Below, in pieces: positions 5,239 to 55,822 of a DNA stretch of 64,000 nucleotides. Both the position numbers and the translations under genes were made by a program. How positions within the stretch are numbered: the first letter of the stretch is position 1; every line of letters begins with the position of its first letter. Source of the stretch: an uncultured Bacilli bacterium (GTDB taxonomy: Bacteria > Bacillota_I > Bacilli_A > RF39 > UBA660); contig CAKOHK010000006.1 in NCBI GenBank assembly GCA_934085595.1, forward strand, positions 12,883 to 76,882, in the 5' to 3' direction. Under the pieces are notes generated by a model. It did not search any database, was not told the origin of the DNA, and saw nothing but the letters and a program-made list of their open reading frames with translations.

Positions 5239-5254
5239 TAATTAGGAGGAAAAA

Positions 5255-9077: not shown

Positions 9078-11054
<1,977 letters not shown>

Positions 11055-28686: not shown

Positions 28687-29620
28687 AAGTAATATAACTA
28701 GATATCCTTATAATATATTTTCACCAGTGAAAATATTAGATGATAGTTATATTCTTTATCCTGCAAAGTTTAAAGGCTTAAAAGATTTATATACTTTCTT
28801 AAAATCAAATCCTGAAATAAATAGTGCTGTATTTAAAGATCCTCATAGTCAAAGGGTAAGTGAAAGTGATTCATTCTATGGCGTATCTTATGAAGAAAGT
28901 TTAGAAAGATTGATTCATGATGACCCTCAAAACTATAGATTATTTGCAGAACTTAATAAAGAATATGTAGGTGCTGGTAAAGTGGTAACTCATAGATATA
29001 AAACAGTAAACACCCTAGCAGGAGGACATATAGATCCAGTTTTATACTCAAAAGGTTCACCATTATGTTATGAAACACAAGAAGTAATAGTTGCACCTAG
29101 ATACATAACAGCACATGTAGGTATTTCTACATCATATAAAACAACAGATGCTCAAATATACAATAAAGCAATATCAGTAATTAATATAGTTTATGCACTT
29201 CAAAAATATGGATATAAAATAAAATTAGATTCTTATGTTAGAGTAAAATGTAAAAATGAAATAATACAAATAATAATAGATTTAAAAGAAAGAAATGGTA
29301 GATTAAATATAAATGATTTATATGAAGCTACATGCAACAAAGAGTTTTATAGAAGAATAATATTTAGAGTAATAGAAAGTATGTCTGTAGAAGATACACG
29401 TTGGCCTACTATATATGGTTCAGAATTCTCTGGCTCAATAGTTAAAAATGATAAAGATTTATATTTTGCTTCTCCTATGGAAATGGGTCTTACAGGTGAA
29501 GATTTATATGAAGATTTTAGAAGAGTTTTAGCTTATATGCACTTAGAAGATTATATTGATGTACCAAGAGTAGAAAAAGATTTTAAAGAGAAGAGCACTA
29601 AACTAAAATTACAGTTATAA
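28673..29620 (+). CDS. Hypothetical 315-aa protein, last gene of AAA_5 operon
   Basis: Likely start ATG 28673 (MQDGKSNIT) with RBS GAGGGAAG; the track start 28658 is in the same frame. A bidirectional terminator (aaaaaacgattt/aaatcgtttttt) is near 29625-29660. Confidence 0.45.
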   Translation: MQDGKSNITRYPYNIFSPVKILDDSYILYPAKFKGLKDLYTFLKSNPEINSAVFKDPHSQRVSESDSFYGVSYEESLERLIHDDPQNYRLFAELNKEYVGAGKVVTHRYKTVNTLAGGHIDPVLYSKGSPLCYETQEVIVAPRYITAHVGISTSYKTTDAQIYNKAISVINIVYALQKYGYKIKLDSYVRVKCKNEIIQIIIDLKERNGRLNINDLYEATCNKEFYRRIIFRVIESMSVEDTRWPTIYGSEFSGSIVKNDKDLYFASPMEMGLTGEDLYEDFRRVLAYMHLEDYIDVPRVEKDFKEKSTKLKLQL

Positions 29621-38151: not shown

Positions 38152-38679
38152 ATGAAAAAAATATTAAAAAATGATAAAAAAATAACAAGTAGAAATTACT
38201 ATATGGTTTTAATAGTGTCAATTATAGTAATAGTATTAACATTATATATAAGATCATTTATTATAAATTATCAAAACAATGTTAATAATACTAGCGTATT
38301 TGAAAAGAATAATATTAAATCTATAACAATAAATGATTTAGATTACATAATCCCAGAAACTGATGAAGCAATTATTTATGTAAGTTACACTGGAGATAAA
38401 AAAGTAACGGCTATGGAAAGTAAACTTTACAAAGAAATTAAAAAGAAAAAATTAGAAGAAAAGATAATATATTTAAATATAACAGATAATTTAGAAGGAA
38501 ATGAATACAGCGTATTATTAAAAGAAAAATTAAAAGATGTTAAAGAAAAAATAAACACACCACCAATGCTTATATATATTAAAGATGGTAAATGTATAGA
38601 TGCGATGAGTAGCGAATTAAAACAAATAGATTATAAAGTATTCGATAAACTAGTAGAAGAGTACAATATAACGGATTAA
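38152..38679 (+). CDS. Membrane-anchored hypothetical protein
   Basis: N-terminal TM helix. A terminator (aatatgtt...aacatatt + T-run) is near 38683-38712. Confidence 0.4.
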   Translation: MKKILKNDKKITSRNYYMVLIVSIIVIVLTLYIRSFIINYQNNVNNTSVFEKNNIKSITINDLDYIIPETDEAIIYVSYTGDKKVTAMESKLYKEIKKKKLEEKIIYLNITDNLEGNEYSVLLKEKLKDVKEKINTPPMLIYIKDGKCIDAMSSELKQIDYKVFDKLVEEYNITD

Positions 38680-38747
38680 ATATGTTCAAAACATATTTTT
38701 TTTTATTAGAAAATATGCTATTATATTTTTAGGGTAGAAGAGGTTAT

Positions 38748-40367
38748 ATGAAAGGATATATAGTAATTAATTATATAAAAGATTCTTTATGTTATAACTT
38801 TAGAAAAATAACAAAAGAAGAAAAAAAATATGTAAATAGTAATTCTTTATATAAAGATAGTCTTTTTTATAGCTTAAATTACCTAAAAAAGAATATTAAT
38901 AAAATCTCTTCAACCATAAAAAATAACTTTAATGAAATAAATTATTTTATAGTAAGAACTACAGTAACATTTAAATATGTTAAAATGTTAATGGAAAAAC
39001 TATCATGTAATAAATTAAGGCTATTATTTGAATACTCTATATCAATAGAAGATTATAATTTATTATCAAGTATTAAAGATTTAAAAGAAATAGATGTATA
39101 CTTTATGCCTACATTTATTATAAATAGATTTGAATCATTAAATATAAAAGTAATAACACACTATACAAATAAAATATCATCAAAGTTTATGTTAGAACAA
39201 GATTCAATAGATTATGATACTTTATATTATAGAAAAAAATTATATATAACAGATGACTATGAAGAATTAGAAGAAGATATAAAAGAGTTCTTTAAAATAA
39301 ATTATTATTTAAAATCAATAGATTTATATTGTTTCGAAAAATCTATTATAGAAAAATTAGTTAAATTAATAACAGAAGATAACACTAAAAATATAGTTAT
39401 TTTAATGCATCAATATAGTGATAAAGGTAACTTTATAAAAACAAACTTTAAATATTTAAAAGATATTAATAAAAAGTGCAAAGAAAACTCTTTATGTGAG
39501 TTTAGAGTAGTATATTCAGAAGACTATTTAAGAAATAATTTATTTAAACAACTATCATATAATAATTTAAAATTAATGATGATAATGATTATATATCTAT
39601 GTGCTAGTACATTTATAATATCTTCTTCATTTAATGCAGTTAATTCACTAAATGCAGATAAATTAAAACATGAAATAATAGAAAATGAAAACAATGATAC
39701 AAAAACCGAGCCATCAGAAGATAATAAAAATGAATTAACAGATAATGATATAGTACTTGATAATAAAGAAGAAGAACAAGTAAAAAGATCTAAATATGAT
39801 TTAGAAAATATAATGGATAATCTTTTAAAAATAAATAATGAAACTGTAGGATACTTAGTAGTAAAAAATACTAATATATCTTATCCAGTAGTTAAACACA
39901 CAGATAATAGTTATTATTTAAAAAGAGACTTCTATAAGAAAAAAACAAGTATGGGATGGGTATTCTTAGACTATAGAAATAGTAAAGATAAGTTTGATGA
40001 TAATAATGTAATATATGCTCATAGTATGAAAAATGGTACGATGTTTGGTACACTTAAAAAAGTAATAGAAAGTAGTTATAGAAGTAATAGTGAAAATATG
40101 ATTATTTCATATGATACATTATTTGGAAAATATAAGTTTAAAATATTCTCAGTATATAAAGTAGATTATACAACAGATTATTTAAAAACTAACTTTGATA
40201 GTGAAAAAGACTTTAATGAATTTGTAAAATTAATTAAATCTCGTAGTGTATTTAAATCAAAAGATAAAGTAAAATATGGAGATAAAATATTAACGCTATC
40301 AACATGTACAGGAAATAACAATAGAAGACTAGTAGTACATGCAGTACTTATAAAGGAGGAAAAGTGA
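38748..40367 (+). CDS. srtB: Class B sortase with ~330-aa N-terminal cytoplasmic extension and one TM helix
   Basis: The C-terminal ~210 aa carry class B sortase motifs: NNETVGYLVVKNTNISYPVVKHTDNSYYLKRDF, MGWVFLDYRNS, NNVIYAHSMKNGTMFGTL (catalytic His), ILTLSTCTGNNNRRLVVHAVL (TLxTC catalytic Cys plus Arg). These are preceded by a TM helix (LKLMMIMIIYLCASTFIISSSF) and a 280-aa N-terminal domain of unknown function. Confidence 0.75.
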   Translation: MKGYIVINYIKDSLCYNFRKITKEEKKYVNSNSLYKDSLFYSLNYLKKNINKISSTIKNNFNEINYFIVRTTVTFKYVKMLMEKLSCNKLRLLFEYSISIEDYNLLSSIKDLKEIDVYFMPTFIINRFESLNIKVITHYTNKISSKFMLEQDSIDYDTLYYRKKLYITDDYEELEEDIKEFFKINYYLKSIDLYCFEKSIIEKLVKLITEDNTKNIVILMHQYSDKGNFIKTNFKYLKDINKKCKENSLCEFRVVYSEDYLRNNLFKQLSYNNLKLMMIMIIYLCASTFIISSSFNAVNSLNADKLKHEIIENENNDTKTEPSEDNKNELTDNDIVLDNKEEEQVKRSKYDLENIMDNLLKINNETVGYLVVKNTNISYPVVKHTDNSYYLKRDFYKKKTSMGWVFLDYRNSKDKFDDNNVIYAHSMKNGTMFGTLKKVIESSYRSNSENMIISYDTLFGKYKFKIFSVYKVDYTTDYLKTNFDSEKDFNEFVKLIKSRSVFKSKDKVKYGDKILTLSTCTGNNNRRLVVHAVLIKEEK

Positions 40368-41002
40368 AAAAGATATTAATTGCAATATTAACAGTTATAT
40401 TATTTATACCTTATCTAAAAGCAGATTGTGACTATCAAAGTGAAGTTAGATTAGGAAAACTAGCAAGTTCAATAACATATGAATATAAATATGATAAAAC
40501 ACATAATAATTTCACATTAACTCTTTATAATGTAAGTGATGAATTATATATAACATACAATCAAAGAATAATAGCACCTACTGATGGTAAAGTTACAATA
40601 AATAATTTAAATCAAGGAACGTATTTATCTTTACCAGTAGAAGCATTAAAAGGAAGCTGTAATGGTTCATTAATGACTTTATATATAATACTTCCATACT
40701 TTAATAAATACTATAATTCAGTAGAATGTAAAGATTATGTTGATAAATTAAAAATATGTACAGATGAATTCTTATCATATGAACCAAATGAAGAATTATT
40801 AACATCAAATATAAATAATTATTTAAATGGAATTAAAAATAATGAAATAAAAGATGATACAAATCAAACAATAACTATAGTAGATAAAGCAAAAAACTTC
40901 GCAAGTAAATGGGGTATAAAAATAGGCTTATCACTAATAACAACAATATCATGTATAGTTTATTTTCAAGTAAAAATAAGAAAATTAAAACATGGACTAT
41001 AA
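40364..41002 (+). CDS. Secreted protein with C-terminal TM anchor, sortase-operon associated
   Basis: Signal peptide MKKILIAILTVILFIPYLKA|DCD. C-terminal hydrophobic segment + KIRKLKHGL. Same architecture and size as the 222-aa cassette protein. Confidence 0.5.
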   Translation: MKKILIAILTVILFIPYLKADCDYQSEVRLGKLASSITYEYKYDKTHNNFTLTLYNVSDELYITYNQRIIAPTDGKVTINNLNQGTYLSLPVEALKGSCNGSLMTLYIILPYFNKYYNSVECKDYVDKLKICTDEFLSYEPNEELLTSNINNYLNGIKNNEIKDDTNQTITIVDKAKNFASKWGIKIGLSLITTISCIVYFQVKIRKLKHGL

Positions 41003-41087
41003 TAGATTTACTTTATAGACAATATTACAATTTTCTTTTTAATATTAATAGTTAAATAAAGTTAATATCTATAATAAAGGAGTGTAT

Positions 41088-41750
41088 ATGAAGAAAATAA
41101 ATAAAATAATGCTCATAATATTAGGAATGTTAATAACTGTTAATGTAAAGGCAGTATGTCAAGATAATAAAATAAATGATTGGGCAGAAAGTTTAGAAAT
41201 AAAGTTTCAAGAAGTAAAAAATGAAGAATATCCATATTCATATTTATTAATGTTAAATAATCCAAGAGAAGATTTAAAAGTAATCGCAAAAGATACATAT
41301 AGTAATGGAGAATATAATGTAGAATATGATACAGACTTTAAAAACTATGTTATTGGAAGCGAAATACATTTTATAAAAAAAGAATATGAATTAAATATAT
41401 ATATGTCAGATAATGCATCTACTTGTGCAAAAGAATTAGTAAAAACTATTAAATATGCAGTACCAAAATATAATGAATATAATGATACATTATATTGTGA
41501 AGCTAATCCAGATGATAAAGAATGTGGAGCATACACAGATACAACAAAGAATGATAAAATGGATGATAAAGTAAAAGACTATTATGATAAACAAATAGAA
41601 AAAGAAGAAATAAGAAATCTACCTACAGGACAAAAAGTATTAAGATATATATTAGAATATGCTCCATATGTACTAGTACCACTAGTTATCCTAGTAACAG
41701 TATATCTAATAGTAATAAAAGTTATAAAGAAAAGAAGTGATGAAGAATGA
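41088..41750 (+). CDS. Small secreted protein with LPxTG-like C-terminal sorting signal (NLPTGQ + TM + KKRSDEE), cassette copy 1
   Basis: Signal peptide ...TVNVKA|VCQD. The C-terminus is RNLPTGQKVLRYILEYAPYVLVPLVILVTVYLIVIKVIKKRSDEE. The ATG 41088 start has RBS AAAGGAG; the track uses GTG 41082. Confidence 0.55.
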   Translation: MKKINKIMLIILGMLITVNVKAVCQDNKINDWAESLEIKFQEVKNEEYPYSYLLMLNNPREDLKVIAKDTYSNGEYNVEYDTDFKNYVIGSEIHFIKKEYELNIYMSDNASTCAKELVKTIKYAVPKYNEYNDTLYCEANPDDKECGAYTDTTKNDKMDDKVKDYYDKQIEKEEIRNLPTGQKVLRYILEYAPYVLVPLVILVTVYLIVIKVIKKRSDEE

Positions 41751-44700
41751 GAAAATTAAAATACCTATTCTTTAGTACATTAGTATTACTAACAAGTATA
41801 AGTACTACATTAGCCATTACTTCATCAGGACAAGTTCCAAATAGTGAAAAAGAAACAATATATCCAAGAGGATACACTACATCATGTAGACCAACTAGTT
41901 CATCAAAAGATGCGATTTATAGCTCAGTTGGAGGAGTACTTAGTGGATATATAGAAAATTCAAATATATATTATGATTCTAAAGTTTCCGATGAACTATA
42001 TACAGACGAAGTATATGCGGAAAGAGCATGTAATGAATATACAGGTTCAAGTGATAATAAAATCCACAATTATGTCTGTGATGGCACTAAACAAACTACT
42101 GGATATGCTTGCTACAAAGAAGGTAAAGTAACATTTGAAATAGATGGAAGAACCTATGAAAATATTGATGTTGATGGTGGAAGAATGTATCCCACAGAAT
42201 CTGATTGTAGTTCAAACTGTTCAGGTACATGTAAACTTCAACAAGGATATAAATATATTTATGGAAAGCAAACACAAACTGGTGAACTAAAAAATGGGAA
42301 AATAATTAATGTTGAAGGTATGCAATATCTTACTAAAAGTGGTGGAAATGCGTTTTGTATTCAGCCTATTTATTCAATGGGGTGCAATCCTGATGGTAGT
42401 CCAAATTATTGCTTAGATAGTCAATTTGATTTAAATACATGTAATAATGCTAAAGAATATAACAATGACTATAGATGTGGACTTGCACATATAGCACTTC
42501 ATGCAACAGAAGTCTTTTCTAAGAACGATAATAAGTTAGATGATAGAGAATATGCAATAGCGGATATAGCGATGAGAATGTATGCGGCATATAAAGGAAA
42601 ATTAAGAGGAACTGTTACATCAGGAGTACCAACAAAGCCAAAAGAGTATCTATATCAATATATATTCGCATTGACTGCTAAAAGAACAATAGCGGATTCC
42701 AATTATCAGAAAGATGGAATGATATGCAACTATGATGCGAATAATATAGGAGTATTATGTACGAATAATAATAACACTTTATACAAAGAAGCACTTAAAT
42801 TATTTATTAATGCTTATAATGCTAATAAACTAGATGCTAGCGGAAATAAAGTACCGGATTTAATAACAAAAAAGATAGATAATTCAACAGAAGAAATTGA
42901 AATAACAAAACCGTGTGAACCTGGTGAAAATGGATGTAAAATAAAAGTGACTCTTGTAACTGCCGATGGAAAAGTAGTAGACGAAGATGACAATGTAACA
43001 TGTTCAAAAAATATATGTACAGCAAAAATATCAGGAGAAAAAACCTGTGTAATCAAAGGTGGACAATCTTATCAAATAAGAGTACAAATAAGTAATTTTA
43101 CTGCAGAAGGTTCGATGAAAATATATCACGATTGTAAACATCCAAATAGTAATCAAATAATGTTCGTATTTGATGCGAAAGGAACCGAAACAGTTGATAC
43201 ATTTGAAAAGAAATACGAAATAAATGCAGTCTGTGAAGATACAACTTGTGATAATAAATCATTACAGACAAAAGTAACAAAAACAAATGCAAGTGGAACA
43301 AGTAACAATATCACATCATGTGATGGATATAGTGAAAATGCATATGGAAAAACGACAAAAGAAATTAATAGCAAATATTATGGAAAAGGAAATTATGATG
43401 GTTATGACAAAATAACTATCGCAGAACCTTCCCTTAAAGATATTTTAAATAATTGTGATAAAAGTTATTTTAGACAAACAAAATATGATCAGGGTGGTGG
43501 AGGATATTGTGAAGTTTACTGCCGTAAAGAAACTGTAATTTATATGGCAGATAAAACAAAAGTGTTCTCTGGAATGCAATTTCAGTATAAATTAGAAGAA
43601 AAAATACCAAATAGTAAAACGACAGATAATCATATAACTTCAATTGTTCAAGTAAAGCAAGAATGTGCATCAGTAATTCATTTTGATGAATGGTATGCAA
43701 AATTAGAAGAATTATTAAAAAATGTTGCAAATGCATGGAACGATTGGAAACATTATGAAGCAATGTATCTTCAAGAAATAGATAAATCTACGGATTATCC
43801 AGAGATCACATGGTATGACCCTCCTTGTACAGCTAACTGTGATGCTTTAAGTGGAAGCAAAACAATGAAAGATGCATGTAATGCTACAAAAGATTTAGAG
43901 GGAGAGTTCTCAACAGGTGGTCAAAAAATTAAAATAGAAGAAGCATGTAAAAATAGAGTAACATATGACCAGTCGACCGGAAGTGTTTGTAATCCAGGAT
44001 GTACATACATTATTAGTTGGTTGCAAAAAAATACCGAACATAACACATACACATATAATAATGGTGGTTCATTATCTAAAAAAGTAGATAAAAGTTCCGA
44101 AATAGATGGTAATTATGGAGGCTCAAGATTGAGCTGTACATATAATAGCGGAACATATAATTATACTTATAGTAGAGACAAAGACGGATCAATTTCATCT
44201 GGTTCAGGTGTGTTAGAAACAGGATTAACTCGTCCATCTAATAGAATTGAGTCATTAAACTATAAAAGTTTCTTAGGAAACGATCCGGATTATTACTATG
44301 GATACTCTAAAGAGCAATGTGAGAATGATGCAGCAAATAGTCTTGGACAAGCTCAATCACTAGCTGCATCAAGAGCATCTGCAGGAGACTATAATTATTG
44401 TGCAGATGTTAAGATATGCAAAAGAATGGTAAATAAAAAATTAGTGCAATATGAATGTGGATGTAACAGGTATACATGGCAAATTACTTCAATATCATCA
44501 ACAACATATAATAGAGGAACGTGCTCATATACTAGTGGTGGAACTTGCTCTCAAGGTAAAAATGCTGATCCTGACAAAGTAAAAAACGCAACACTTGCTA
44601 AAAGAAGTGCATATTTAGCAGCACAAGCAGCAGTACAACAACATTTAAAATATATTCAAAATTGTAACTTATATGGTGCAAATGATTGGGTACATGTTGA

Positions 44701-46150
44701 TTCAGCAATAAAAGATTATGTTTTAACTCTCGGAAGTACAGGATACCCTAGAGAATCTTCTGGAACTGGTGGATCTGGTGGATCTGGTGGCGGAGGTACT
44801 GGAAGTGGAGGAGATGGCACAGGCGGAGGTGGAAACACCGGAGGCGGTGGTGGAGATACAATATATATAACTAAACCTGGTCAGGAACAAACGGCAGCTA
44901 TGCCTGGATATGAAAATTTAAAAGCCACAAACGCTTTATCAACTACTAGCAAATATGCAACAATAAAATTAGCAACTGATAGTTCGTTGAGTACAATAAT
45001 AAAGAAAAATATATTATCAGATGCGAGTTGTCTAAGAACTGGAACATGTCCAGAATTAGATGTGGAATATGATGATATAGCTTACGGAAACACACAAAGA
45101 TATGATAGAACTGCTCATGTAGTAGATTCAGAAGATTTACCTAATAAATATTGTAAAGACGAAAAAGGACAAGACTGTGAATACAGTTACTCAGATATAG
45201 AAAAATGGGTTCCACTAATAGTTTGCGATAACAGCTCTGAAAAAGAAATAAACAAATATTGCTATATACCAAGTGATACAAAAGTACCAACAGCAAGAAG
45301 AGCCTATTTTACAACAACAACAGAACTTATGTATTATAGACCAAATGAATATTATACAGAAAATCATACTGGAAAAGTAATTGAAGTTAAAAGTAATACA
45401 AGGGTTGATTCAAATAAATATGCAATGCTTGGTAAAAACGTATATCCTATATCTAACGTAGATACTGGAATATACGGAATTAGATATCATTTTATAGGAA
45501 TTGGTAGTGGAAAGTTCTATAACATTTCTAAAAACAATAACACAGGATTAAAACTTAACAATTTTGATTATACATGTGCATATGAAGCGTATAATAACTC
45601 AAATAAATATGACTGTGATGGAAGCAGTTGCAATGGAAATGATAATACATGTGTAAGAGTAACTGAAACGGCTCCAAATCTATCAACAACAAAATGGGAT
45701 AAATTAACAGATAAAAAGAGTTATGGATTTATGTTCAAAAATACTGAACTATCAGATATTTTCAAAAATGAAAATAGAAAAATAGGAAATAACTGGAATA
45801 ATGAAAAAGCTCAAATAGCAAAACAAGAAATAGAAGAGTCGGCAACTGATATTTATACAAATAGTGAAAGATTAATGTTAAGTGTAACATTGTCAACAGA
45901 TGCAATTAAGAAAATTAGAGAATATAACGAATCAAGAGAAACAAATGCAGGAGGATATACAGATGATTCACTAATTAGTTGTGAACTTGCAAACGCTATA
46001 GATGGAGATGGAAAAGTGTTCAAAAACTGTAGAAGTGCATTTATAGATGAAATAAGTACAGGAAGTGGGGTACTTGGAATAAAATCAAATAGTGAAATTA
46101 TAAGGGGAGGAAAAGAAATAGGAAGTAGTAGCAAAGGAGGCAATAATTAG
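41747..46150 (+). CDS. Giant (1467 aa) cysteine-rich secreted protein, cassette copy 1
   Basis: Signal peptide MRKLKYLFFSTLVLLTSISTTLA. Dozens of Cys in paired patterns (CDGSSCNGNDNTC, CEPGENGCKIK, CSKNICTAKI). Gly-rich linker SGTGGSGGSGGGGTGSGGDGTGGGGNTGGGGGD. No C-terminal sorting signal. Confidence 0.6.
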   Translation: MRKLKYLFFSTLVLLTSISTTLAITSSGQVPNSEKETIYPRGYTTSCRPTSSSKDAIYSSVGGVLSGYIENSNIYYDSKVSDELYTDEVYAERACNEYTGSSDNKIHNYVCDGTKQTTGYACYKEGKVTFEIDGRTYENIDVDGGRMYPTESDCSSNCSGTCKLQQGYKYIYGKQTQTGELKNGKIINVEGMQYLTKSGGNAFCIQPIYSMGCNPDGSPNYCLDSQFDLNTCNNAKEYNNDYRCGLAHIALHATEVFSKNDNKLDDREYAIADIAMRMYAAYKGKLRGTVTSGVPTKPKEYLYQYIFALTAKRTIADSNYQKDGMICNYDANNIGVLCTNNNNTLYKEALKLFINAYNANKLDASGNKVPDLITKKIDNSTEEIEITKPCEPGENGCKIKVTLVTADGKVVDEDDNVTCSKNICTAKISGEKTCVIKGGQSYQIRVQISNFTAEGSMKIYHDCKHPNSNQIMFVFDAKGTETVDTFEKKYEINAVCEDTTCDNKSLQTKVTKTNASGTSNNITSCDGYSENAYGKTTKEINSKYYGKGNYDGYDKITIAEPSLKDILNNCDKSYFRQTKYDQGGGGYCEVYCRKETVIYMADKTKVFSGMQFQYKLEEKIPNSKTTDNHITSIVQVKQECASVIHFDEWYAKLEELLKNVANAWNDWKHYEAMYLQEIDKSTDYPEITWYDPPCTANCDALSGSKTMKDACNATKDLEGEFSTGGQKIKIEEACKNRVTYDQSTGSVCNPGCTYIISWLQKNTEHNTYTYNNGGSLSKKVDKSSEIDGNYGGSRLSCTYNSGTYNYTYSRDKDGSISSGSGVLETGLTRPSNRIESLNYKSFLGNDPDYYYGYSKEQCENDAANSLGQAQSLAASRASAGDYNYCADVKICKRMVNKKLVQYECGCNRYTWQITSISSTTYNRGTCSYTSGGTCSQGKNADPDKVKNATLAKRSAYLAAQAAVQQHLKYIQNCNLYGANDWVHVDSAIKDYVLTLGSTGYPRESSGTGGSGGSGGGGTGSGGDGTGGGGNTGGGGGDTIYITKPGQEQTAAMPGYENLKATNALSTTSKYATIKLATDSSLSTIIKKNILSDASCLRTGTCPELDVEYDDIAYGNTQRYDRTAHVVDSEDLPNKYCKDEKGQDCEYSYSDIEKWVPLIVCDNSSEKEINKYCYIPSDTKVPTARRAYFTTTTELMYYRPNEYYTENHTGKVIEVKSNTRVDSNKYAMLGKNVYPISNVDTGIYGIRYHFIGIGSGKFYNISKNNNTGLKLNNFDYTCAYEAYNNSNKYDCDGSSCNGNDNTCVRVTETAPNLSTTKWDKLTDKKSYGFMFKNTELSDIFKNENRKIGNNWNNEKAQIAKQEIEESATDIYTNSERLMLSVTLSTDAIKKIREYNESRETNAGGYTDDSLISCELANAIDGDGKVFKNCRSAFIDEISTGSGVLGIKSNSEIIRGGKEIGSSSKGGNN

Positions 46151-46630
46151 ATGAAAGAATCAATATGGGGCTATATGATATTAGCACTAGGAATAGTAAT
46201 AATAGTAGTATTACTATTGGTACAAAGAGTAACAACAACAGGAGAAGAAGATTACTACCTAGTAAGAGAAATATTAGAGTCCTCAATGATAGACGCAATA
46301 GATTATGGTTCTTATAGATTATCAGGAAGAATAGTAATGTCAGCAGAAAAGTTTGAAGAAGTATTTATAAGAAGATTCGCAGAAAGTGTAACGAATAATA
46401 GAGAATATAAATTAGAGTTCTATGAAATCTATGAAGACCCTCCAAAAGCAACAGTAAGAGTAAGGACAGCAAGTGGAGATTATAGTGTAAACTCTGATAC
46501 ATTAAATGTAAGTATAGATACACTATTAAGTGGAATATTAGAAACAAAAGATACAAGAACATGCGATGATGTACCAGAAGATACAGATACTGCTCCAACA
46601 ATACCAGTACTTCCAGTATTTGGAAATTAA
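46151..46630 (+). CDS. Small membrane-anchored protein (159 aa), cassette copy 1
   Basis: Start ATG overlaps/abuts the giant gene's stop (TAGATG). N-terminal TM ILALGIVIIVVLLLV. Confidence 0.5.
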   Translation: MKESIWGYMILALGIVIIVVLLLVQRVTTTGEEDYYLVREILESSMIDAIDYGSYRLSGRIVMSAEKFEEVFIRRFAESVTNNREYKLEFYEIYEDPPKATVRVRTASGDYSVNSDTLNVSIDTLLSGILETKDTRTCDDVPEDTDTAPTIPVLPVFGN

Positions 46631-46635
46631 ACTTA

Positions 46636-46676
46636 AAAGAACTATTAAGGAATAAGATATTTATAGTTCTTTTTTT
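46636..46676 (+). terminator. Rho-independent terminator (AGAACTAT...ATAGTTCT + T7)
   Basis: Inverted repeat read directly. Confidence 0.55.
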
Positions 46677-46822
46677 ATAGTAAAACTTAATAACTGTTTA
46701 TAAAGTTAAAGCCTTAAAACATTAAAATAAGTATGAAAATGTACAAATTTTATTTTCAAATAAAACATGGACTATAATTTATAAAAATGATATACTTATT
46801 TTATAAAAGTAAAGGAGTGTAT

Positions 46823-47485
46823 ATGAAGAAAATAAATAAAATAATGCTCATAATATTAGGAATGTTAATAACTGTTAATGTAAAGGCAGTATGTCAAGAT
46901 AATAAAATAAATGATTGGGCAGAAAGTTTAGAAATAAAGTTTCAAGAAGTAAAAAATGAAGAATATCCATATTCATATTTATTAATGTTAAATAATCCAA
47001 GAGAAGATTTAAAAGTAATCGCAAAAGATACATATAGTAATGGAGAATATAATGTAGAATATGATACAGACTTTAAAAACTATGTTATTGGAAGCGAAAT
47101 ACATTTTATAAAAAAAGAATATGAATTAAATATATATATGTCAGATAATGCATCTACTTGTGCAAAAGAATTAGTAAAAACTATTAAATATGCAGTACCA
47201 AAATATAATGAATATAATGATACATTATATTGTGAAGCTAATCCAGATGATAAAGAATGTGGAGCATACACAGATACAACAAAGAATGATAAAATGGATG
47301 ATAAAGTAAAAGACTATTATGATAAACAAATAGAAAAAGAAGAAATAAGAAATCTACCTACAGGACAAAAAGTATTAAGATATATATTAGAATATGCTCC
47401 ATATGTACTAGTACCACTAGTTATCCTAGTAACAGTATATCTAATAGTAATAAAAGTTATAAAGAAAAGAAGTGATGAAGAATGA
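46823..47485 (+). CDS. Small secreted LPxTG-like protein, cassette copy 2 (identical to 41088-41750)
   Basis: Identical amino-acid sequence to copy 1 from MKKINKIM on. Confidence 0.55.
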   Translation: MKKINKIMLIILGMLITVNVKAVCQDNKINDWAESLEIKFQEVKNEEYPYSYLLMLNNPREDLKVIAKDTYSNGEYNVEYDTDFKNYVIGSEIHFIKKEYELNIYMSDNASTCAKELVKTIKYAVPKYNEYNDTLYCEANPDDKECGAYTDTTKNDKMDDKVKDYYDKQIEKEEIRNLPTGQKVLRYILEYAPYVLVPLVILVTVYLIVIKVIKKRSDEE

Positions 47486-50400
47486 GAAAATTAAAATACC
47501 TATTCTTTAGTACATTAGTATTACTAACAAGTATAAGTACTACATTAGCCATTACTTCATCAGGACAAATACCATCAAATCAAAAAGAGTTTATATGGTA
47601 TAAAGGAAAAAGCTGTGCTCCAGGTTCAGAAGTAAAATATGGTCCAGTATCAGGTTATTATAGTGCTTTTTCTTCAGATAGTAAGAAATCTTATACATAT
47701 TACACATCACCAACTATATATACTGATGAAGCATATGCTACAAAAGGATGTGAATACTTTACATCACAAAGTAAAAATAAAGATAAAAATTATTTATGTA
47801 CAGGGACTAAACAAACATCAGGATATGCTTGTTACAAAGAAGGAAAAGTAACATTTGAAATAGATGGAAGAACATACGAAAATATTAATGTTGATGGTGG
47901 AAGAATGTACACTAGTGAATCAGAATGTGCTGATAACTGTAGCGGAACATGTAAAGTTCAAAAAGCATATGGATTTGAATATGCAACAGAAATAGACACA
48001 GGAACAACTACTAACGGTGAAATAGCGCCTCTTTATGGAGATGTATACTCAACAGCAAATGGTAACCCTGCATTTTGTATACAACCAGCAGCAAGAATGA
48101 GTTGTTATGGAGATAATAGTGCCCAATATTGTTTAAACAGTACTTTCGATTTAACAACATGTAATACAGCAAATGGATATAAATCTGATTATAGATGTGG
48201 TCTTGCAAATATAGCACTTCATGCAACAAAATTAAAAAATAATGACAATGCATTAAACGATGAAGAATATGCTATCGCAGATATTGCAATGAGAATGTAT
48301 GCAGCATATAAAGGAAAATTAAGAGGAACTGAATACGCATCAGTGCCAACAGAATCAGCATTCAATGAAAGCGGATTAAAAAAGAATGTGTTTATGGGTA
48401 AATATCTATTTGGATTAACAGCCAAAAGAGTAGACCAAGATGGTAATTATTTAAATAATGGACTTAAATGTAATACAGATACAAGAAACATAGGAATTAT
48501 GTGTAACTGTGATCCAAAAACAGGAAGCTGTCAATATAATCAAACTACATACTTAGAAGCATTAAAATTATTTAAAATGGCACTTGATACAAATACACTA
48601 GATAGTGAAGGAAACAAAGTACCAGACTTAATTACAAAAAATATAGATAACACAACAAGTGAAATAGAAATAACTAAACCATGTGAGCCAGGAGAAGACG
48701 GATGTAAAATAAAAATAAGTCTTGTAACTGCTGATGGAAAAGTAGTAGACGAAGATGACAATGTAACATGTTCAAAAAATATATGTACAGCAAAAATAAC
48801 TGGTGAAAAAACATGTATTGAAAAAAGTCAAAAGTATAGCGTAAAAGTTGAAATATCTAATATAAAGTTTGATGGAGAAATTAAAGAATACCATCACTGT
48901 ACTTATCCAAACGATAGACAAATAATGATGGTTCTAGATATAGCGGCACAGGAAGTAACAGATAACTTTACTAAAACTTATGAAGTTAAAACAACATGTG
49001 ATTCATGTGTTAATAATTCTTCTGATATGAAAACAACAATAACATCAGAAAATGCTAATGGAACTAAAAATAAATCATTAACAGCATGTGACGGAAATAA
49101 AAATTATGGTGAAGGTGACTACGATGGATATGACAAAATAACAATCGCTGAACCATCAATGGATTCTATACTTAAAAGTTGTGATAAAGAATCATTTAGA
49201 GAGAGTGAGTTTGAAATAAATACTGGAGGATATTGTCAAATATATTGTAGAAAAGAAACTGTAATATATTTAGCAGATAAAACAAAAGTATTCTCAGGAA
49301 TGCAATTCCAATATAAATTAGAAGAGAAAGTACCTAATAGTAAAAAAACAGATAATCATATATCATCAATAGTACAAGTTAAAAAAGAATGTACATCTGT
49401 TATAAATTATCAAAAGTTTGAATCAGAATTAGAAGCAAAATTAAAACAAGTAGCAAATGCTTGGACTGAATATAAAAAATGGGAAGCTCTTAGATATGCT
49501 GAGTCATATGCAGATGATTCAAGTTATCCAAAAGTAGCATCTTATAAACCACAATGTAGCGCAAACTGTGATATAGGTGACAATCAAACTGTAAATAAAG
49601 CATGTCAAGAAGTAAGTGGAGAAGGTGCATTTATATTAGAATGGACAAGTGGAAAAATTGCTGGTACTAAAGGCTATGGCGCTAATGCATGGTGTGGTTC
49701 AGTACCTCAAACAGATATAGATTCAGGCGGTGTGTGTAATCCAGGATGTCACTTTAAATTAAGATGGTATAAAAACGGAAATACAAAATATCAACAATTT
49801 ACATATAGTGGAAACGGAAACGGAAGTAATTCAGGAAAAGAAGCATCAGCACAAGATGGAGAACTATATGGAATATCTAATAGAACATGTATAGCAAGAG
49901 ACGGAGGATATAACTATAAAACCATTGATAATGGTGGTGGAAAGTGTTCATGTGCATCATCCGGAACAGTAAATGGATTTACAGAAGTTATGTCATTGGA
50001 TAATCCATACACTAAAGCAAAATGTAATGCAGATTATAAAGACAAAAAAGGTTTTTCTGCACCAAGTAATAGTTGTTCATATCAATCAGGAACAGAAAAG
50101 TATGAATGTGGAACCATTAGAAGACCTAAGTCATGTATTAGAGCTGTGTATACAACTAAAACATGTGAAGGTTCATTTACAGGTTATGCATCAAGTTCAT
50201 GTAATTTTACATCAACAGGATCTTGTACACCGGGTAAAGATGGTGATCCACAATATGTAGCTAAACATTTAGTTGAAGCAGCGGAAAAATATTATTCACT
50301 ACAAAATGAAGTATTACAAATGCTTAAAAACTTAGAAAACTGTAATTTCTATGGTAATGATTGGATTGCAGGAGAACCAAGCTTTAAATCATATGAATTA

Positions 50401-51786
50401 AGTCTTACAAAAGGTGGAACTCGTGGTCTAGTATCAACTGCACAAGCAATATTAAACGCAGGAAAAGTAGTTGAAGGAAATTATGGTGAAGGTGGAGGCG
50501 GTGGCGGAGAAGTCATTAGTATTCCAGAATTCGATGCATTAAAAATGTCATACGACTTCACAAGCGATGTTAAAACATCAACTGCTCTAGAAGAATATAA
50601 TAATAACTATGCAAAAATAAAACTAGCAACAAGTACAAACGATGTAATAAAGAAAAATATTCTAGCATCAGCTACATGTTTAACAAATAATACATGTCCA
50701 GAACTAGATGTAGAATATAATGATGTAGCATATGGAAATACACAAAGATATGATAGAACTGTAAATGTAGTAGCAGATGACGATATATTTAATCATTATT
50801 GTATAGGTGACAATTGTGGTTTATCAGTAGATCAAGTTAAAAGTAATACATACTTTATAGAATGTGACGATACAGGATTAAAACCAGAAAAGAAAACATG
50901 TAAAGTAATAACAGTTCCAGTATCACATGCAACAAAAGCATACTTTACTTCAACAACAGAACTTATGTATTATAGACCAAATGAATATTATACAGAAAAC
51001 CATACTGGAAAAGTAATTGAAGTTAAAAGTAATACAAGAGTTGATAGTGGAAAATATGTATCATTAGGTAAAAATGTATATCCAATATCAAATGTAAATA
51101 CAGGAATATATCCTATAAGTTATCATTTTACTAATATAGGTAGTGGTAAATATTATAATGTTTCTAAATATAATCAAACAGGTTTAAAACTAACTAATTT
51201 TGATTATGATTGTGCATATGAAGCATACAATAATTCAAATAAATATGACTGTGATGGAAGCAGTTGTAATGGAAATGATAATACATGTGTAAGAGTAGTA
51301 GAAACAGCTCCAAATCTATCAACAACAAAATGGGATAAATTAACAGATAAAAAAAGCTACGGATTTATGTTCAAAAATACTGAACTATCAGATATTTTCA
51401 AAAATGAAAATAGAAAAATAGGAAATAACTGGAATAATGAAAAAGCTCAAATAGCAAAACAAGAAATAGAAGAGTCGGCAACTGATATTTATACAAATAG
51501 TGAAAGATTAATGTTAAGTGTAACATTGTCAACAGATGCAATTAAGAAAATTAGAGAATATAACGAATCAAGAGAAACAAATGCAGGAGGATATACAGAT
51601 GATTCACTAATTAGTTGTGAACTTGCAAACGCTATAGATGGAGATGGAAAAGTGTTCAAAAACTGTAGAAGTGCATTTATAGATGAAATAAGTACAGGAA
51701 GTGGGGTACTTGGAATAAAATCAAATAGTGAAATTATAAGGGGAGGAAAAGAAATAGGAAGTAGTAGCAAAGGAGGCAATAATTAG
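47482..51786 (+). CDS. Giant (1434 aa) cysteine-rich secreted protein, cassette copy 2 (mosaic paralog)
   Basis: The first ~29 aa and the last ~165 aa are identical to copy 1, and the preceding ~120 aa are near-identical. The centre alternates identical blocks (YACYKEGKVTFEIDGRTYENI; EYAIADIAMRMYAAYKGKLRG; EIEITKPCEPGE.GCKIK..LVTADGKVVDEDDNVTCSKNICTAKI; KTKVFSGMQFQYKLEEK) with strongly divergent stretches. The Gly-rich linker is shortened to GEGGGGGGE. Confidence 0.6.
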   Translation: MRKLKYLFFSTLVLLTSISTTLAITSSGQIPSNQKEFIWYKGKSCAPGSEVKYGPVSGYYSAFSSDSKKSYTYYTSPTIYTDEAYATKGCEYFTSQSKNKDKNYLCTGTKQTSGYACYKEGKVTFEIDGRTYENINVDGGRMYTSESECADNCSGTCKVQKAYGFEYATEIDTGTTTNGEIAPLYGDVYSTANGNPAFCIQPAARMSCYGDNSAQYCLNSTFDLTTCNTANGYKSDYRCGLANIALHATKLKNNDNALNDEEYAIADIAMRMYAAYKGKLRGTEYASVPTESAFNESGLKKNVFMGKYLFGLTAKRVDQDGNYLNNGLKCNTDTRNIGIMCNCDPKTGSCQYNQTTYLEALKLFKMALDTNTLDSEGNKVPDLITKNIDNTTSEIEITKPCEPGEDGCKIKISLVTADGKVVDEDDNVTCSKNICTAKITGEKTCIEKSQKYSVKVEISNIKFDGEIKEYHHCTYPNDRQIMMVLDIAAQEVTDNFTKTYEVKTTCDSCVNNSSDMKTTITSENANGTKNKSLTACDGNKNYGEGDYDGYDKITIAEPSMDSILKSCDKESFRESEFEINTGGYCQIYCRKETVIYLADKTKVFSGMQFQYKLEEKVPNSKKTDNHISSIVQVKKECTSVINYQKFESELEAKLKQVANAWTEYKKWEALRYAESYADDSSYPKVASYKPQCSANCDIGDNQTVNKACQEVSGEGAFILEWTSGKIAGTKGYGANAWCGSVPQTDIDSGGVCNPGCHFKLRWYKNGNTKYQQFTYSGNGNGSNSGKEASAQDGELYGISNRTCIARDGGYNYKTIDNGGGKCSCASSGTVNGFTEVMSLDNPYTKAKCNADYKDKKGFSAPSNSCSYQSGTEKYECGTIRRPKSCIRAVYTTKTCEGSFTGYASSSCNFTSTGSCTPGKDGDPQYVAKHLVEAAEKYYSLQNEVLQMLKNLENCNFYGNDWIAGEPSFKSYELSLTKGGTRGLVSTAQAILNAGKVVEGNYGEGGGGGGEVISIPEFDALKMSYDFTSDVKTSTALEEYNNNYAKIKLATSTNDVIKKNILASATCLTNNTCPELDVEYNDVAYGNTQRYDRTVNVVADDDIFNHYCIGDNCGLSVDQVKSNTYFIECDDTGLKPEKKTCKVITVPVSHATKAYFTSTTELMYYRPNEYYTENHTGKVIEVKSNTRVDSGKYVSLGKNVYPISNVNTGIYPISYHFTNIGSGKYYNVSKYNQTGLKLTNFDYDCAYEAYNNSNKYDCDGSSCNGNDNTCVRVVETAPNLSTTKWDKLTDKKSYGFMFKNTELSDIFKNENRKIGNNWNNEKAQIAKQEIEESATDIYTNSERLMLSVTLSTDAIKKIREYNESRETNAGGYTDDSLISCELANAIDGDGKVFKNCRSAFIDEISTGSGVLGIKSNSEIIRGGKEIGSSSKGGNN

Positions 51787-52266
51787 ATGAAAGAATCAAT
51801 ATGGGGCTATATGATATTAGCACTAGGAATAGTAATAATAGTAGTATTACTATTGGTACAAAGAGTAACAACAACAGGAGAAGAAGATTACTACCTAGTA
51901 AGAGAAATATTAGAGTCCTCAATGATAGACGCAATAGATTATGGTTCTTATAGATTATCAGGAAGAATAGTAATGTCAGCAGAAAAGTTTGAAGAAGTAT
52001 TTATAAGAAGATTCGCAGAAAGTGTAACGAATAATAGAGAATATAAATTAGAGTTCTATGACATCTATGAAGACCCTCCAAAAGCAACGGTAAGAGTAAG
52101 AACAGCAAGCGGAAATTATAGTGTAAACTCTGATACATTAAATGTAAGTATAGATACATTACTAAGTGGAATATTAGAAACAAAAGATACAAGAACGTGT
52201 GAAGATGTACCAGAAGATACAGATACTGCCCCAACAATACCAGTACTTCCAGTATTTGGAAATTAA
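51787..52266 (+). CDS. Small membrane-anchored protein (159 aa), cassette copy 2
   Basis: 3 aa substitutions relative to copy 1. A terminator (aagatact...agtatctt + T-run) follows near 52271-52298. Confidence 0.5.
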   Translation: MKESIWGYMILALGIVIIVVLLLVQRVTTTGEEDYYLVREILESSMIDAIDYGSYRLSGRIVMSAEKFEEVFIRRFAESVTNNREYKLEFYDIYEDPPKATVRVRTASGNYSVNSDTLNVSIDTLLSGILETKDTRTCEDVPEDTDTAPTIPVLPVFGN

Positions 52267-52358
52267 AACGAAAGATACTAAAAAAGTATCTTTTTGTATA
52301 CACAAAAATGTTAGAAAATTAACTTATAAAATCAGACTAATAATTTTAATTTTGCTTC

Positions 52359-52388
52359 TTGACATTGAAGGAAGAATATAATTATAAT
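52359..52388 (+). promoter_or_regulatory. Sigma-A-type promoter TTGACA-18-TATAAT upstream of TasA-like paralog A
   Basis: TTGACA 52359-52364; tandem TATAAT hexamers at 52377-52388. The block TTTGCTTCTTGACA...TATAATT(G/A)TTAATAGAGAATA is repeated upstream of paralog C at 55765-55815. Confidence 0.5.
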
Positions 52389-54212: not shown

Positions 54213-54300
54213 GATACTAAAACCTAGTACCTTTTTATAGGTTCTATTGTAATTAATCATTAGAGTTGATATAATAATAACTAGAGTAAAGGAAGATAAT

Positions 54301-55725
54301 ATGAAAGATAAAAAGTTTATATTTTCAAGTATATTGGTTGCAACATTCTTGTTAACAGTAGGGCTAACTTATGCTTATTTTAGTTTGACAGTTAGTGGTA
54401 ACGATGTAGCTGAAACTATTAATGTAAATACTACAAAGTTAGAATTAAAATATACTGATGGTAAAGAAGTAAAAGCAGACGGTATAGAACCAGGGTGGAC
54501 TACAACTAAAACTATTACAGTAGAAAATAAAGGTAATGAAGAAACATATTACACTCTTGGATGGCAAAAACTTTATAATGAGATTCAAAAAGATGAACTT
54601 GTTATAAGAAGTTCGTGTACAAGTAGTGGAGTAACTACAGGTACATGTCAAAGCACTGAAAATGTAATAATTTCACAGACTCTAGTAGTGACAGCAGAAA
54701 CAAATAAAGTAGTATATCCATATAAAGAAAATGCAAAGATATTACCAGGTGAAGTTCATACCTATACTATAACGATAGAATTTATAAATTATACTGACAT
54801 GCCACAAAACTATAATCAAGGCAAAAGCTTTTATGGAGTGTTAGGAGTAGCAGAAAGTGGCGAAAAATCAATTCTTGCAGATTATCTAATAGAAAATTAT
54901 CAAACGTTAGGTTTAACAAAAATAGATCAAGCTGCAACTGGTAATCAAAATTATGCTACAACCGAATATAGATATCAAGGAAAAGATCCAAATAATTATA
55001 TTACATTTAATGATGAAACTGGAGTATGGAGGATAATTGGTGCTTTAGAAGTAGAAACACCTCAAACAGATGGAACTTATATTAAGGAATATAAAGTTAA
55101 AATTGTTAGAGATAGTCTAGAAAATGGAAAGTGGGGAAGCGTGTCTGCAAATGACTGGACTTCAGCATCACTTATGACTACATTCAATAGCGGAGATTAT
55201 TATAATAGAAGTGGTTCTTATAGTGAAACTGGATTAACGGAAAATGCAAAAAATCAAATAAGCAGTACGAAATGGTATTTAGGAAATGCACAATATGGTG
55301 TTAATACGCAAAAAGTATATTCATCTGAAAGAAGTACTAGTGTACAAAGTGGCAATAAGCAAACATGGGATGGAAAAGTTGCGCTTATATATCCTAGTGA
55401 CTATATGTATGCAAGTAGCGCATGTTATAATGATGATACAAAAAAAGGTTGGGATACTAATGGTATATCACCATTTAATACAGATTATAGAAGTGAAACA
55501 TGCAAAAGTACAGGATGGTTATTAGATACAAATCAATGGTATTGGGCTATTTCCCCAAACAATTTCAGTTCAGATTTTGCAATGGTTATACTTAGTGAAG
55601 GATATATGAGAAGTTATAGTAGTTATCGTAATTCAGGTGGTATTCGTCCTTCATTGTATCTTAACGCTAGTGTAAATTACATATCAGGATCTGGAAGTAA
55701 TAGTGACCCATTTATAATAGGTTAA
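54301..55725 (+). CDS. TasA/CalY-like multidomain fibre protein (paralog B, 474 aa)
   Basis: The N-terminal ~60 aa are nearly identical to A. It has the NYNQGKSFYGVLGVAES block and a homologous C-terminal domain (YRYQGKDPNNYITFNDETGVWRIIGALEVETP...). Confidence 0.65.
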   Translation: MKDKKFIFSSILVATFLLTVGLTYAYFSLTVSGNDVAETINVNTTKLELKYTDGKEVKADGIEPGWTTTKTITVENKGNEETYYTLGWQKLYNEIQKDELVIRSSCTSSGVTTGTCQSTENVIISQTLVVTAETNKVVYPYKENAKILPGEVHTYTITIEFINYTDMPQNYNQGKSFYGVLGVAESGEKSILADYLIENYQTLGLTKIDQAATGNQNYATTEYRYQGKDPNNYITFNDETGVWRIIGALEVETPQTDGTYIKEYKVKIVRDSLENGKWGSVSANDWTSASLMTTFNSGDYYNRSGSYSETGLTENAKNQISSTKWYLGNAQYGVNTQKVYSSERSTSVQSGNKQTWDGKVALIYPSDYMYASSACYNDDTKKGWDTNGISPFNTDYRSETCKSTGWLLDTNQWYWAISPNNFSSDFAMVILSEGYMRSYSSYRNSGGIRPSLYLNASVNYISGSGSNSDPFIIG

Positions 55726-55822
55726 CTAATAAAAAAGTGTTCACGAAAGTGTTCGCTTTTTATTTGCTTCTTGACAGGGGGGGTACCTTTATAATTATTA
55801 ATAGAGAATAGAGGTACATAGA

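Follow-up and report, generated by a model that had tools for sequence, protein, structure and literature searches.

A class B sortase subfamily with a conserved cytoplasmic domain in uncultured gut Bacilli, and its possible recognition of substrate tails

An extended class B sortase and its orphan N-terminal domain

We analyzed a 64-kb stretch of DNA (64,000 nucleotides; contig CAKOHK010000006.1, positions 12,883 to 76,882), referred to as the window, from an uncultured Bacilli bacterium. Its subject here is a gene for an unusually long sortase, the extended sortase, which is the second gene of a tightly packed, co-directional array at positions 38152-52266. The array encodes, in order, a DUF6568 protein, the sortase, two small proteins with a C-terminal transmembrane (TM) helix (p212 and p222), a giant Cys-rich protein (giant 1), a DUF5411 protein, and then a second p222, a second giant (giant 2), and a second DUF5411 protein (Table 1). 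An initial annotation of this DNA had described a class B sortase with a 330-residue cytoplasmic N-terminal part and a candidate substrate next door. All of the sequence features that it listed (open reading frames [ORFs], hydropathy, and motifs) are found in the window.

The sortase ORF is preceded by a Shine-Dalgarno-like sequence, AGAAGAGG, a good ribosome binding site (RBS). The protein scores 169.5 bits against the sortase_srtB equivalog model TIGR03064 (residues 306-530; cutoff, 153.75) and also matches Pfam Sortase (PF04203; E value of 9.5e-14; 51.7 bits versus 26.6). Scores for the LPKTxAVK-specific SrtB model (NF040525; 74.1 bits) and the class C, or pilus, sortase model (NF033745; 14.6 bits) lie below the respective cutoffs of 200 and 160. 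The best PDB sequence matches are the SrtB enzymes of Bacillus anthracis, Clostridioides difficile, Listeria, and Staphylococcus aureus. In the alignment with B. anthracis SrtB (2oqw/1rz2; E value of 5e-37; positions counted from the printed alignment), H425 (in YAHSM, nucleotides [nt] 40020-40022), C520 (in LSTC, nt 40305-40307), and R527 (in NRRLVV, nt 40326-40328) fall on H140, C233, and R243, which we take to be the catalytic residues of that enzyme. This triad is invariant in 36 extended sortases (alignment A1) and at least 90% conserved in a broad alignment of 65 members that reaches down to approximately 31% identity. Judged from these alignments, the catalytic domain is that of a class B sortase on every catalytic criterion, in agreement with the canonical His, Cys, and Arg motifs of the initial annotation.

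The topology of the protein differs from that of the usual SrtB, in which the anchor lies at the extreme N terminus with few cytoplasmic residues before it. A hydropathy scan finds a sole hydrophobic segment, at residues ~274-296, and none at the N terminus, placing the TM helix behind a folded domain of 272 residues (the N-domain). Since there is one TM helix and no signal peptide, and since the catalytic domain must be outside the cell, the N-domain is most simply placed in the cytoplasm. The large cytoplasmic domain of unknown function that was originally described therefore stands, but at a size of about 272 residues; the figure of 330 also counts the TM helix and the extracellular linker. 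This linker places ~55 residues between the TM helix and the catalytic domain. Its predicted local distance difference test (pLDDT) score is <50 for residues 315-354, and in A1 it is gappy and variable in length. Its column identity is 0.15-0.35.

The extended architecture is widespread. A search of 5.8 billion proteins returned 554 homologues; among the 120 listed, which supplied lengths and identities, the proteins measure 458-566 amino acids (aa) and, outside the same-species cluster, are 48-57% identical to the window protein, with alignments covering 99-100% of the query. When a single genome per species was scanned, at least 567 confirmed matches were obtained, and 80 loci were retained (L001 and onward). 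The 80 retained genomes are metagenome-assembled genomes (MAGs) that carry the labels Bacilli, Mollicutes, Tenericutes, Erysipelotrichaceae, or Coprobacillus sp. CAG:605 and derive from the guts of humans, rabbits, goats, and other hosts. Extended sortases occur in uncultured gut Bacilli ("Mollicutes/Tenericutes" MAGs) of several hundred species. The N-terminal region is as alignable in A1 as the catalytic domain, and the RBS and start of the window gene agree with those of its homologues. That the N-terminal region is a separate gene, joined to the sortase by a sequencing frameshift or an assembly error, is thus practically ruled out: the uninterrupted architecture recurs in independent assemblies and in hundreds of species-representative genomes. 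We found no name on record for these proteins in the sources looked up, and literature searches turned up no description of a sortase with a cytoplasmic domain. To our knowledge, the sortases described to date are minimal, consisting of a membrane anchor and an extracellular catalytic domain. The 539-aa protein appears to belong to a previously undescribed, widely conserved subfamily of class B sortases and is putatively active. The hosts probably make peptidoglycan, as suggested by SEDS-like C-terminal motifs recognized by eye in ORFs of L011 and L037. Elsewhere in the window, positions 18739-20793 encode a sulfatase-family protein that is similar in size to LtaS (684 aa), in keeping with a Gram-positive-type envelope for this "Mollicutes-like" lineage.

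No match to the N-domain was found in Pfam, NCBIfam, or, with a profile as the query, PDB sequences, and hidden Markov model (HMM) searches thus leave it a domain of unknown function. A phmmer search with residues 1-272 against 1.84 billion cluster representatives found 51 proteins, and the match was always at the N terminus of a 486- to 553-aa protein or a visible fragment; the domain is therefore exclusive to the sortase fusion and defines a new orphan domain family. AlphaFold2 gives a confident model of the N-domain, both alone (pLDDT of 85.9; predicted template modelling score of 0.78) and within the full-length protein (pLDDT of 85-94), in which an N-terminal hairpin is followed by eight beta-strand/alpha-helix units. 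The model has no close fold match. We describe it as a putative orphan alpha/beta-repeat scaffold resembling leucine-rich repeats (LRRs), a label that we attach with low confidence. Seventeen N-domain positions are at least 90% conserved in the 65 members (N32, Y41, Y45, N49, F147, Q151, Y161, D177, F181, I184, N185, L188, I191, Y256, S257, N264, and Q268). Just before the TM helix, the juxtamembrane motif NNLFKQLxxNNLKL (N264-L276) is invariant in A1. In the full-length model, the last helix of the N-domain runs unbroken into the TM helix, forming one helix from residue 258 to residue 315.

The initial annotation suggested a regulated or signal-coupled anchoring step. In that case, the N-domain would act as a regulatory sensor for some cytoplasmic ligand or partner and would use the juxtamembrane-TM helix to gate the activity outside the cell. 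The unbroken helix, the invariant N264-L276 motif, and the conservation of the N-domain even at loci with no adjacent substrate gene are in keeping with such a sensor. However, the N-domain has no recognizable ligand-binding or signalling fold, and its family-wide conserved residues are mostly Asn, Tyr, Phe, and aliphatic residues, as in a scaffold, rather than a catalytic or metal-binding set. Conformational coupling is further disfavored by the disordered linker of ~55 residues that lies between the TM helix and the catalytic domain. We consider a sensor role quite unlikely.

Table 1. Features of the sortase gene and of the surrounding array (coordinates in the window)
Feature	Position	Strand	Basis or remark
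DUF6568 membrane-anchored protein, first array gene	38152..38679	+	PF20207, 1.4e-18
Extended class B sortase, whole gene including stop codon	38748..40367	+	539-aa ORF
Cytoplasmic N-domain (predicted), aa 1-272	38748..39563	+	N-terminal hairpin, then eight beta-strand/alpha-helix units; orphan domain
Single TM helix, aa 274-296	39567..39635	+	Hydropathy scan, A1, full-length model
Extracellular linker, aa 297-350, acidic/Asn-rich, poorly conserved	39636..39797	+	pLDDT, A1 gaps
SrtB catalytic domain, aa 351-539	39798..40364	+	Residue-by-residue alignment to B. anthracis SrtB
p212: signal peptide, 4-Cys ectodomain, C-terminal TM helix, cytoplasmic tail RKxKHG[IL]	40364..41002	+	ORF, 212 aa
p222 copy 1: signal peptide, ectodomain, C-terminal TM anchor	41088..41750	+	p212/p222 iterated HMMs, ORF
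Giant secreted Cys-rich protein 1, 1467 aa, 54 Cys	41747..46150	+	No sorting signal
DUF5411 copy 1, N-terminal TM helix	46151..46630	+	PF17424, 5.6e-49
p222 copy 2, identical protein	46823..47485	+	nt 41075-41833 and 46810-47568 100% identical
Giant secreted Cys-rich protein 2, 1434 aa, 58 Cys	47482..51786	+	55% identical overall to giant 1
DUF5411 copy 2	51787..52266	+	PF17424, 1.5e-49

The partner substrate and its cytoplasmic tail

The 80 loci were scanned for partner genes, whose products had to be secreted and to end in a TM helix followed by a basic tail; 59 extended-sortase loci with an upstream flank contributed to the count, and the scan window was 450 nt. Beside the sortase start, 40 of these loci carry an oppositely oriented gene for a small secreted protein, nearly always ~50-370 nt from the sortase. 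The partner proteins (176-440 aa) end in xxxTG, typically xxxP, a TM helix, and a tail. Their motifs include NPQTG, NPKTG, NPETG, NKQTG, and NPDTG, with N at position 1 in 26/40 and P at position 2 in 27/40. The tail conforms to K-hydrophobic-Y-K/R-I/V-COOH: counting from the C terminus, position -5 is K in 36/40, -4 is M, F, L, I, or V in 40/40, -3 is Y in 34/40, -2 is K or R in 31/40, and -1 is I, V, or L in 40/40. In an alignment of 15 small members (A5), the ectodomains are only ~25% identical, and the sorting signal and tail are the most conserved part; T, G, P, one Tyr of the TM helix, and K..KI-COOH are invariant or nearly so. Loci of short, ordinary SrtB enzymes in similar MAGs (L073, L074, and L080) also have NP(x)T-type substrates nearby, but with unrelated and unconserved tails (IKIKEKRN, YRRLHN, and NNKKDKNKKDK). 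In most genomes, therefore, gene order and motif conservation show the extended subfamily as a dedicated sortase paired with a small secreted putative substrate.

Variants of this arrangement occur. Larger divergent substrates of 372-415 aa are encoded in L005 (8639-9886), L007 (94-1212), L008 (8594-9793), L028 (8546-9793), and L034 (3541-4725); those of L005, L007, L008, and L034 have a vWA-type N-terminal domain by eye, and the five carry another tail, K/E-F-N/S-R-L/I/V or different. L035 and L043 encode NPQTG proteins in tandem, two or three per locus, an arrangement that recalls pilus gene sets. Two other kinds of neighbour, co-directional proteins of ~810-1394 aa 3' of the sortase (L009, L011, L015, L021, and L042; 631 aa in L019, at a contig end) and a 253-aa protein of L023, have no Pfam match and were set aside as uninformative.

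The window and its nearest relatives, L001-L004, have no divergent partner gene, and an HD-domain gene stands in its place. When all window ORFs of at least 80 aa were scanned for a C-terminal TM helix, p212 and p222 alone were found, and no canonical substrate. Whereas an NPxTG/NPQTN-type substrate lies nearby at 40/59 loci of the family, the 64-kb window shows none apart from an unconserved NLPTG in p222. L005 and L034 carry both the divergent substrate and the array of p212, p222, and giant genes. On the reverse strand of the window, positions 9078-10166 encode a GT2-TPR protein that is 50-58% identical to the product of a gene present at 17 distant loci, in many of which it lies convergent just 3' of the sortase. 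This gene is distant from the sortase in the window, and the sortase neighbourhood therefore appears to have been rearranged in the window lineage. The region beside the window's GT2-TPR gene was also scanned and contains no canonical substrate.

The substrate originally proposed for the window sortase was the product of the downstream 222-aa ORF (41082-41750), whose real start is probably the ATG at 41088, giving 220 aa. Its C-terminal part reads ...RNLPTGQKVLRYILEYAPYVLVPLVILVTVYLIVIKVIKKRSDEE, with NLPTG at nt 41616-41630, and the described order of NLPTGQ (preceded by R), a 12-residue spacer, a hydrophobic stretch, and KKRSDEE is indeed present. On this proposal, p222 would have gained a working sorting signal in the window species, and the sortase would link p222, and thereby its partner giant protein, to the cell wall. 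NLPTG fits the N-x-x-T-G of the real substrates, whose position 2 is P, K, V, T, or S; a TM helix and a basic tail follow it; p222 is translationally coupled to the giant gene; and the window lineage lacks the usual adjacent substrate. NLPTG is also retained in all 15 within-species variants of p222, an invariance that carries little weight because the variants are all at least 97% identical.

The p222 orthologues (98, 73, 70, 69, 57, 55, 52, 51, and 48% identity) speak against it. NLPTG is confined to the same-species cluster, and the T-G dipeptide, at which sortases cut, occurs in no other orthologue: those at 70-73% identity have NKPFLK and NKPLSQ at the motif position, and more distant ones have GKPWYV, NAPWYQ, NSAWYE, SAPWYT, and AKPLYQ. 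The p222 homologues of L002-L006, L034, L081, and L082 likewise have no T-G. L001-L006, L081, and L082 share the array and keep an intact sortase together with a p222 that lacks the motif. In the window protein itself, the spacer from G to the TM helix is 12 residues long, charged, and amphipathic, compared with 1-4 residues in 42 real substrates, and the KKRSDEE tail lacks the K-hydrophobic-Y-K-I signature. What the p222 family does keep is a Pro at the motif position, an amphipathic stretch, a Pro-containing TM helix, and a KKRS tail, and this conserved C terminus is, to judge from the alignment, a plain membrane anchor. With the orthologue alignment and L081/L082 ruling out a conserved sorting signal, NLPTG is most likely a species-specific coincidence, p222 is probably not a sortase substrate, and the acquisition of a working signal in this one species is improbable. 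The idea of a substrate next door thus fails for p222, which is moreover separated from the sortase by p212; it holds for the wider family, where the adjacent protein appears to be the divergent N-P/K-x-T-G one.

As a test of tail recognition, we compared the divergence of the partner tail and motif with that of the two sortase domains. Pairwise distance matrices were built for 42 loci with an extended sortase and an adjacent substrate and compared by Mantel-type tests with 2000 permutations. The tail (last nine residues) follows the N-domain: its distance correlates with N-domain distance given catalytic distance (partial r of 0.65, reached by 0/2000 permutations; P ≤ 0.0005) and not with catalytic distance given N-domain distance (-0.06). 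The five-residue motif behaves in the opposite way, correlating with catalytic distance given N-domain distance (0.49; P ≤ 0.0005) and not with N-domain distance given catalytic distance (-0.34). The substrate TM segment and ectodomain, which served to control for shared descent, correlate with both sortase parts. The result holds in three subsets: without the four larger substrates that are vWA-like by eye, with Y-x-[IVL] tails alone, and after reduction to a single locus for each combination of motif and tail. Co-evolution of each half of the signal with the sortase domain on its own side of the membrane would be expected to produce this pattern. As evidence for the N-domain as a reader of the cytoplasmic tail, the covariation is suggestive only.

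Together, the comparative data point to recognition of the substrate's cytoplasmic tail by the sortase. In the explanation that we favor, to which we assign a probability of roughly 0.5, these proteins form an extended SrtB subfamily whose N-domain docks the substrate tail. The catalytic domain would cut and transfer the substrate at T-G outside the cell, while the N-domain, joined by a helix to the TM segment, would dock the tail inside it. Docking could pair enzyme and substrate across the membrane or could hold or sense the C-terminal remnant after cleavage, and it would thereby contribute to specificity, co-localization, or clearance. In the window lineage, the N-domain most likely docks either a substrate whose gene lies outside the window or the equally conserved RKxKHG[IL] tail of p212.

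Several observations weigh against tail docking. The N-domain is still well conserved at the 19/59 extended-sortase loci, including the window and L001-L004, that have no adjacent substrate, and a subclade (L023, L030, L031, and L063) has nearby VPKTG proteins whose tails differ. The N-domain is on average basic (mean net charge of +4.5), which rules out simple charge complementarity with the basic tails. The Mantel-type tests ignore phylogenetic non-independence, and independent changes are few. The N-domain also outpaces the catalytic domain in evolution and may be no more than a better clock, although the opposite behavior of the motif argues otherwise.

The gene array around the sortase

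The p212 gene separates p222 from the sortase; preceded by the RBS AAGGAGG, it starts within the stop codon of the sortase gene (GTGA overlap). It is encoded directly 3' of the sortase in L001-L006, L034, L081, and L082. Among p212 homologues (alignment A4), the ectodomain is 30-40% identical, with its four Cys residues invariant, and the RKxKHG[IL] tail is nearly invariant (K207 and H210 invariant). Because of this invariance, the p212 tail is a second candidate ligand of the N-domain in the window lineage. p212 and p222 are paralogues, since iterated HMMs begun from either reach the same 20 ORFs. We also considered p212 as a diverged member of the small-substrate family and rejected this, as hhalign matches the signal peptide only.

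Stop and start codons overlap at three junctions of the array, that of the sortase with p212 and those of both p222/giant pairs (ATGA), and each giant gene is directly followed by its own DUF5411 gene. No intrinsic terminator was predicted within positions 38152-52266, and a perfect sigma-70-type promoter, TTGACA-18-TATAAT, lies just 3' of the array at 52359-52388. The DUF6568 gene is found directly 5' of the extended sortase in L001-L004 and L081 as well. As the initial annotation stated, the giants carry no sorting signal; neither has a C-terminal TM segment. The p222-giant-DUF5411 module is present as a tandem duplicate (41075-46631 and 46810-52267), with identities of 100% over the first 759 nt and 94% over the last ~1.35 kb, but of only 55% overall between the two giant proteins. 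From these identities, it looks as if gene conversion had acted on the ends of the modules and diversification on the middle.

p222 is always paired with a giant gene, and giant homologues follow it in L002-L006, L034, L056, L060, L081, and L082. In L002-L004, L006, L081, and L082, the array continues past DUF5411 with two CpaB/RcpC-like genes, a T2SSE (TadA/CpaF-like) ATPase, and two TadB/C-like membrane proteins. The distant members L056 and L060 have a p222-giant-DUF5411-CpaB block ~5 kb from the sortase. Most family members (L007-L066), however, have no Tad, DUF5411, or giant genes within 10 kb and keep the N-domain. In the window, tblastn searches with the relatives' CpaB-like, ATPase, and TadB/C-like proteins found nothing, and a Tad/Flp pilus locus is not present by this measure.

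These neighbours suggest another role for the N-domain, namely, to tie the sortase to a Tad-type machine, or to the tails of p212 or p222, so that anchoring takes place where the giant adhesins emerge. The sortases of the window clade do sit inside an array that relatives extend with CpaB/RcpC-like, ATPase, and TadB/C-like genes, the block in L056 and L060 lies near the sortase, and the p212 cytoplasmic tail is invariant. Further, a study of gut Clostridia reports DUF5411 in predicted systems of the CpaF/PilC type (PMC9523054). Localization of this kind is nevertheless unlikely: most of L007-L066 keep the N-domain with none of these genes within 10 kb, the window has no Tad genes detected by tblastn, and the covariation signal is with the substrate tail.

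Docking of the substrate tail by the N-domain remains the reading that we prefer, and it can be extended, tentatively and at somewhat less than even odds, to a stronger claim. The extended sortase may be the first to read its substrate on both sides of the membrane, with N-P-x-T-G recognized outside and the K-hydrophobic-Y-K-I tail or its remnant inside, the reader having been re-used for the p212 tail in the giant-adhesin/Tad-associated array. The positively charged tail of sorting signals is otherwise treated as a generic retention element. A conserved cytoplasmic domain together with sequence-specific substrate tails would imply that the pairing of enzyme and substrate can occur from the cytoplasmic side. 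If true, sortase specificity would have a new principle, protein engineering would gain a handle for orthogonal sortase/tag pairs, and there would be a first functional clue to surface-protein display in poorly known uncultured gut Bacilli. The "sorting signal with tail" family could also join annotation resources.

Several further genes were recorded in passing. DUF5411 proteins with long C-terminal extensions are encoded in L003 (12333-13322), L006 (6401-7540), and L082 (8343-9482); a dockerin-like repeat can be made out by eye in one of them, and the other two weakly resemble Peptidase_C39_2 over part of their length. Downstream of the array, window positions 52416-56191 encode three paralogues of 598, 474, and 122 aa with near-identical N termini, the third being truncated. 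The 598-aa paralogue matches the start of Pfam Peptidase_M73 (camelysin/TasA-like), and relatives lie near the extended sortase in 18 other loci. Beside glycosyltransferase genes, positions 10173-11036 (reverse strand) encode a 287-aa protein made up almost entirely of G-x-T collagen-type triplets (Pfam Collagen, 1.9e-32). Positions 3733-6349 may be a defence island, with a 501-aa protein that matches the PADLOC candidate defence family PDC-M26A (2.9e-40) beside a DUF2357 protein. Positions 26500-29620 encode a 728-aa protein that weakly matches AAA ATPases and, after it, a DUF7192 protein; PADLOC gave no match here.

Comparison with known sorting systems

The closest known enzymes are the SrtBs of B. 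anthracis BA4783, S. aureus, Listeria monocytogenes, and C. difficile, whose catalytic domains are homologous to that of the extended sortase (E values of 1e-30 to 5e-37) with the triad aligned. They differ in size and layout: known SrtBs have ~215-255 aa (PDB chain lengths) with the anchor at the very N terminus, whereas the extended sortase begins with 272 extra cytoplasmic residues. The Isd-type SrtBs of S. aureus, B. anthracis, and Listeria belong to haem-uptake loci with NEAT-domain or haem-transport genes; the extended sortase is not of this type, as Pfam scans of the genes scanned between window positions 25146 and 55725 found no NEAT or Isd families. The substrates of the extended sortase have a signal of the N-P-x-T-G type, similar to NPKTG, the sorting signal of B. 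anthracis. Unlike known SrtB partners, they add a cytoplasmic tail that is conserved in sequence.

The DUF5411-containing CpaF/PilC-type operons of gut Clostridia (PMC9523054) resemble the relatives' arrays, in which DUF5411 and a large surface protein lie beside CpaB, T2SSE ATPase, and TadB/C-like genes. The passage on these operons mentions no sortase, and the window is without the ATPase and platform genes.

A dedicated pairing is also reported for Spy0129/SrtC2 of Streptococcus pyogenes (PMC3019223), a pilus-associated sortase with a class B fold that likewise serves proteins encoded beside it. The likeness extends to those extended-sortase loci that have two or three tandem substrates, or substrates of ~370-440 aa that are vWA-like by eye, in the manner of pilin and tip-adhesin sets. 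Spy0129, however, has no cytoplasmic domain, and the window has no tandem or vWA-like substrates. Neither a pilin motif nor an E-box was seen in the family, although no search aimed at them was made.

The exosortase/PEP-CTERM and rhombosortase/GlyGly-CTERM systems (PMC3237569) also consist of one enzyme and a co-occurring C-terminal signal that is tripartite and conserved in sequence, including its tail. Both enzymes are polytopic intramembrane proteins unrelated to sortases.

The nearest parallel for tail reading comes from Streptococcus gordonii, where the two-component kinase SGO_1180 senses a sorting-signal remnant, the C-peptide, as described in PMC11326707. It sets a precedent for specific recognition of a substrate's TM-plus-tail fragment at or in the membrane. 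In S. gordonii, a histidine kinase distinct from the sortase does the reading; the reader proposed here is unrelated to that kinase in sequence and would be fused to the sortase itself.

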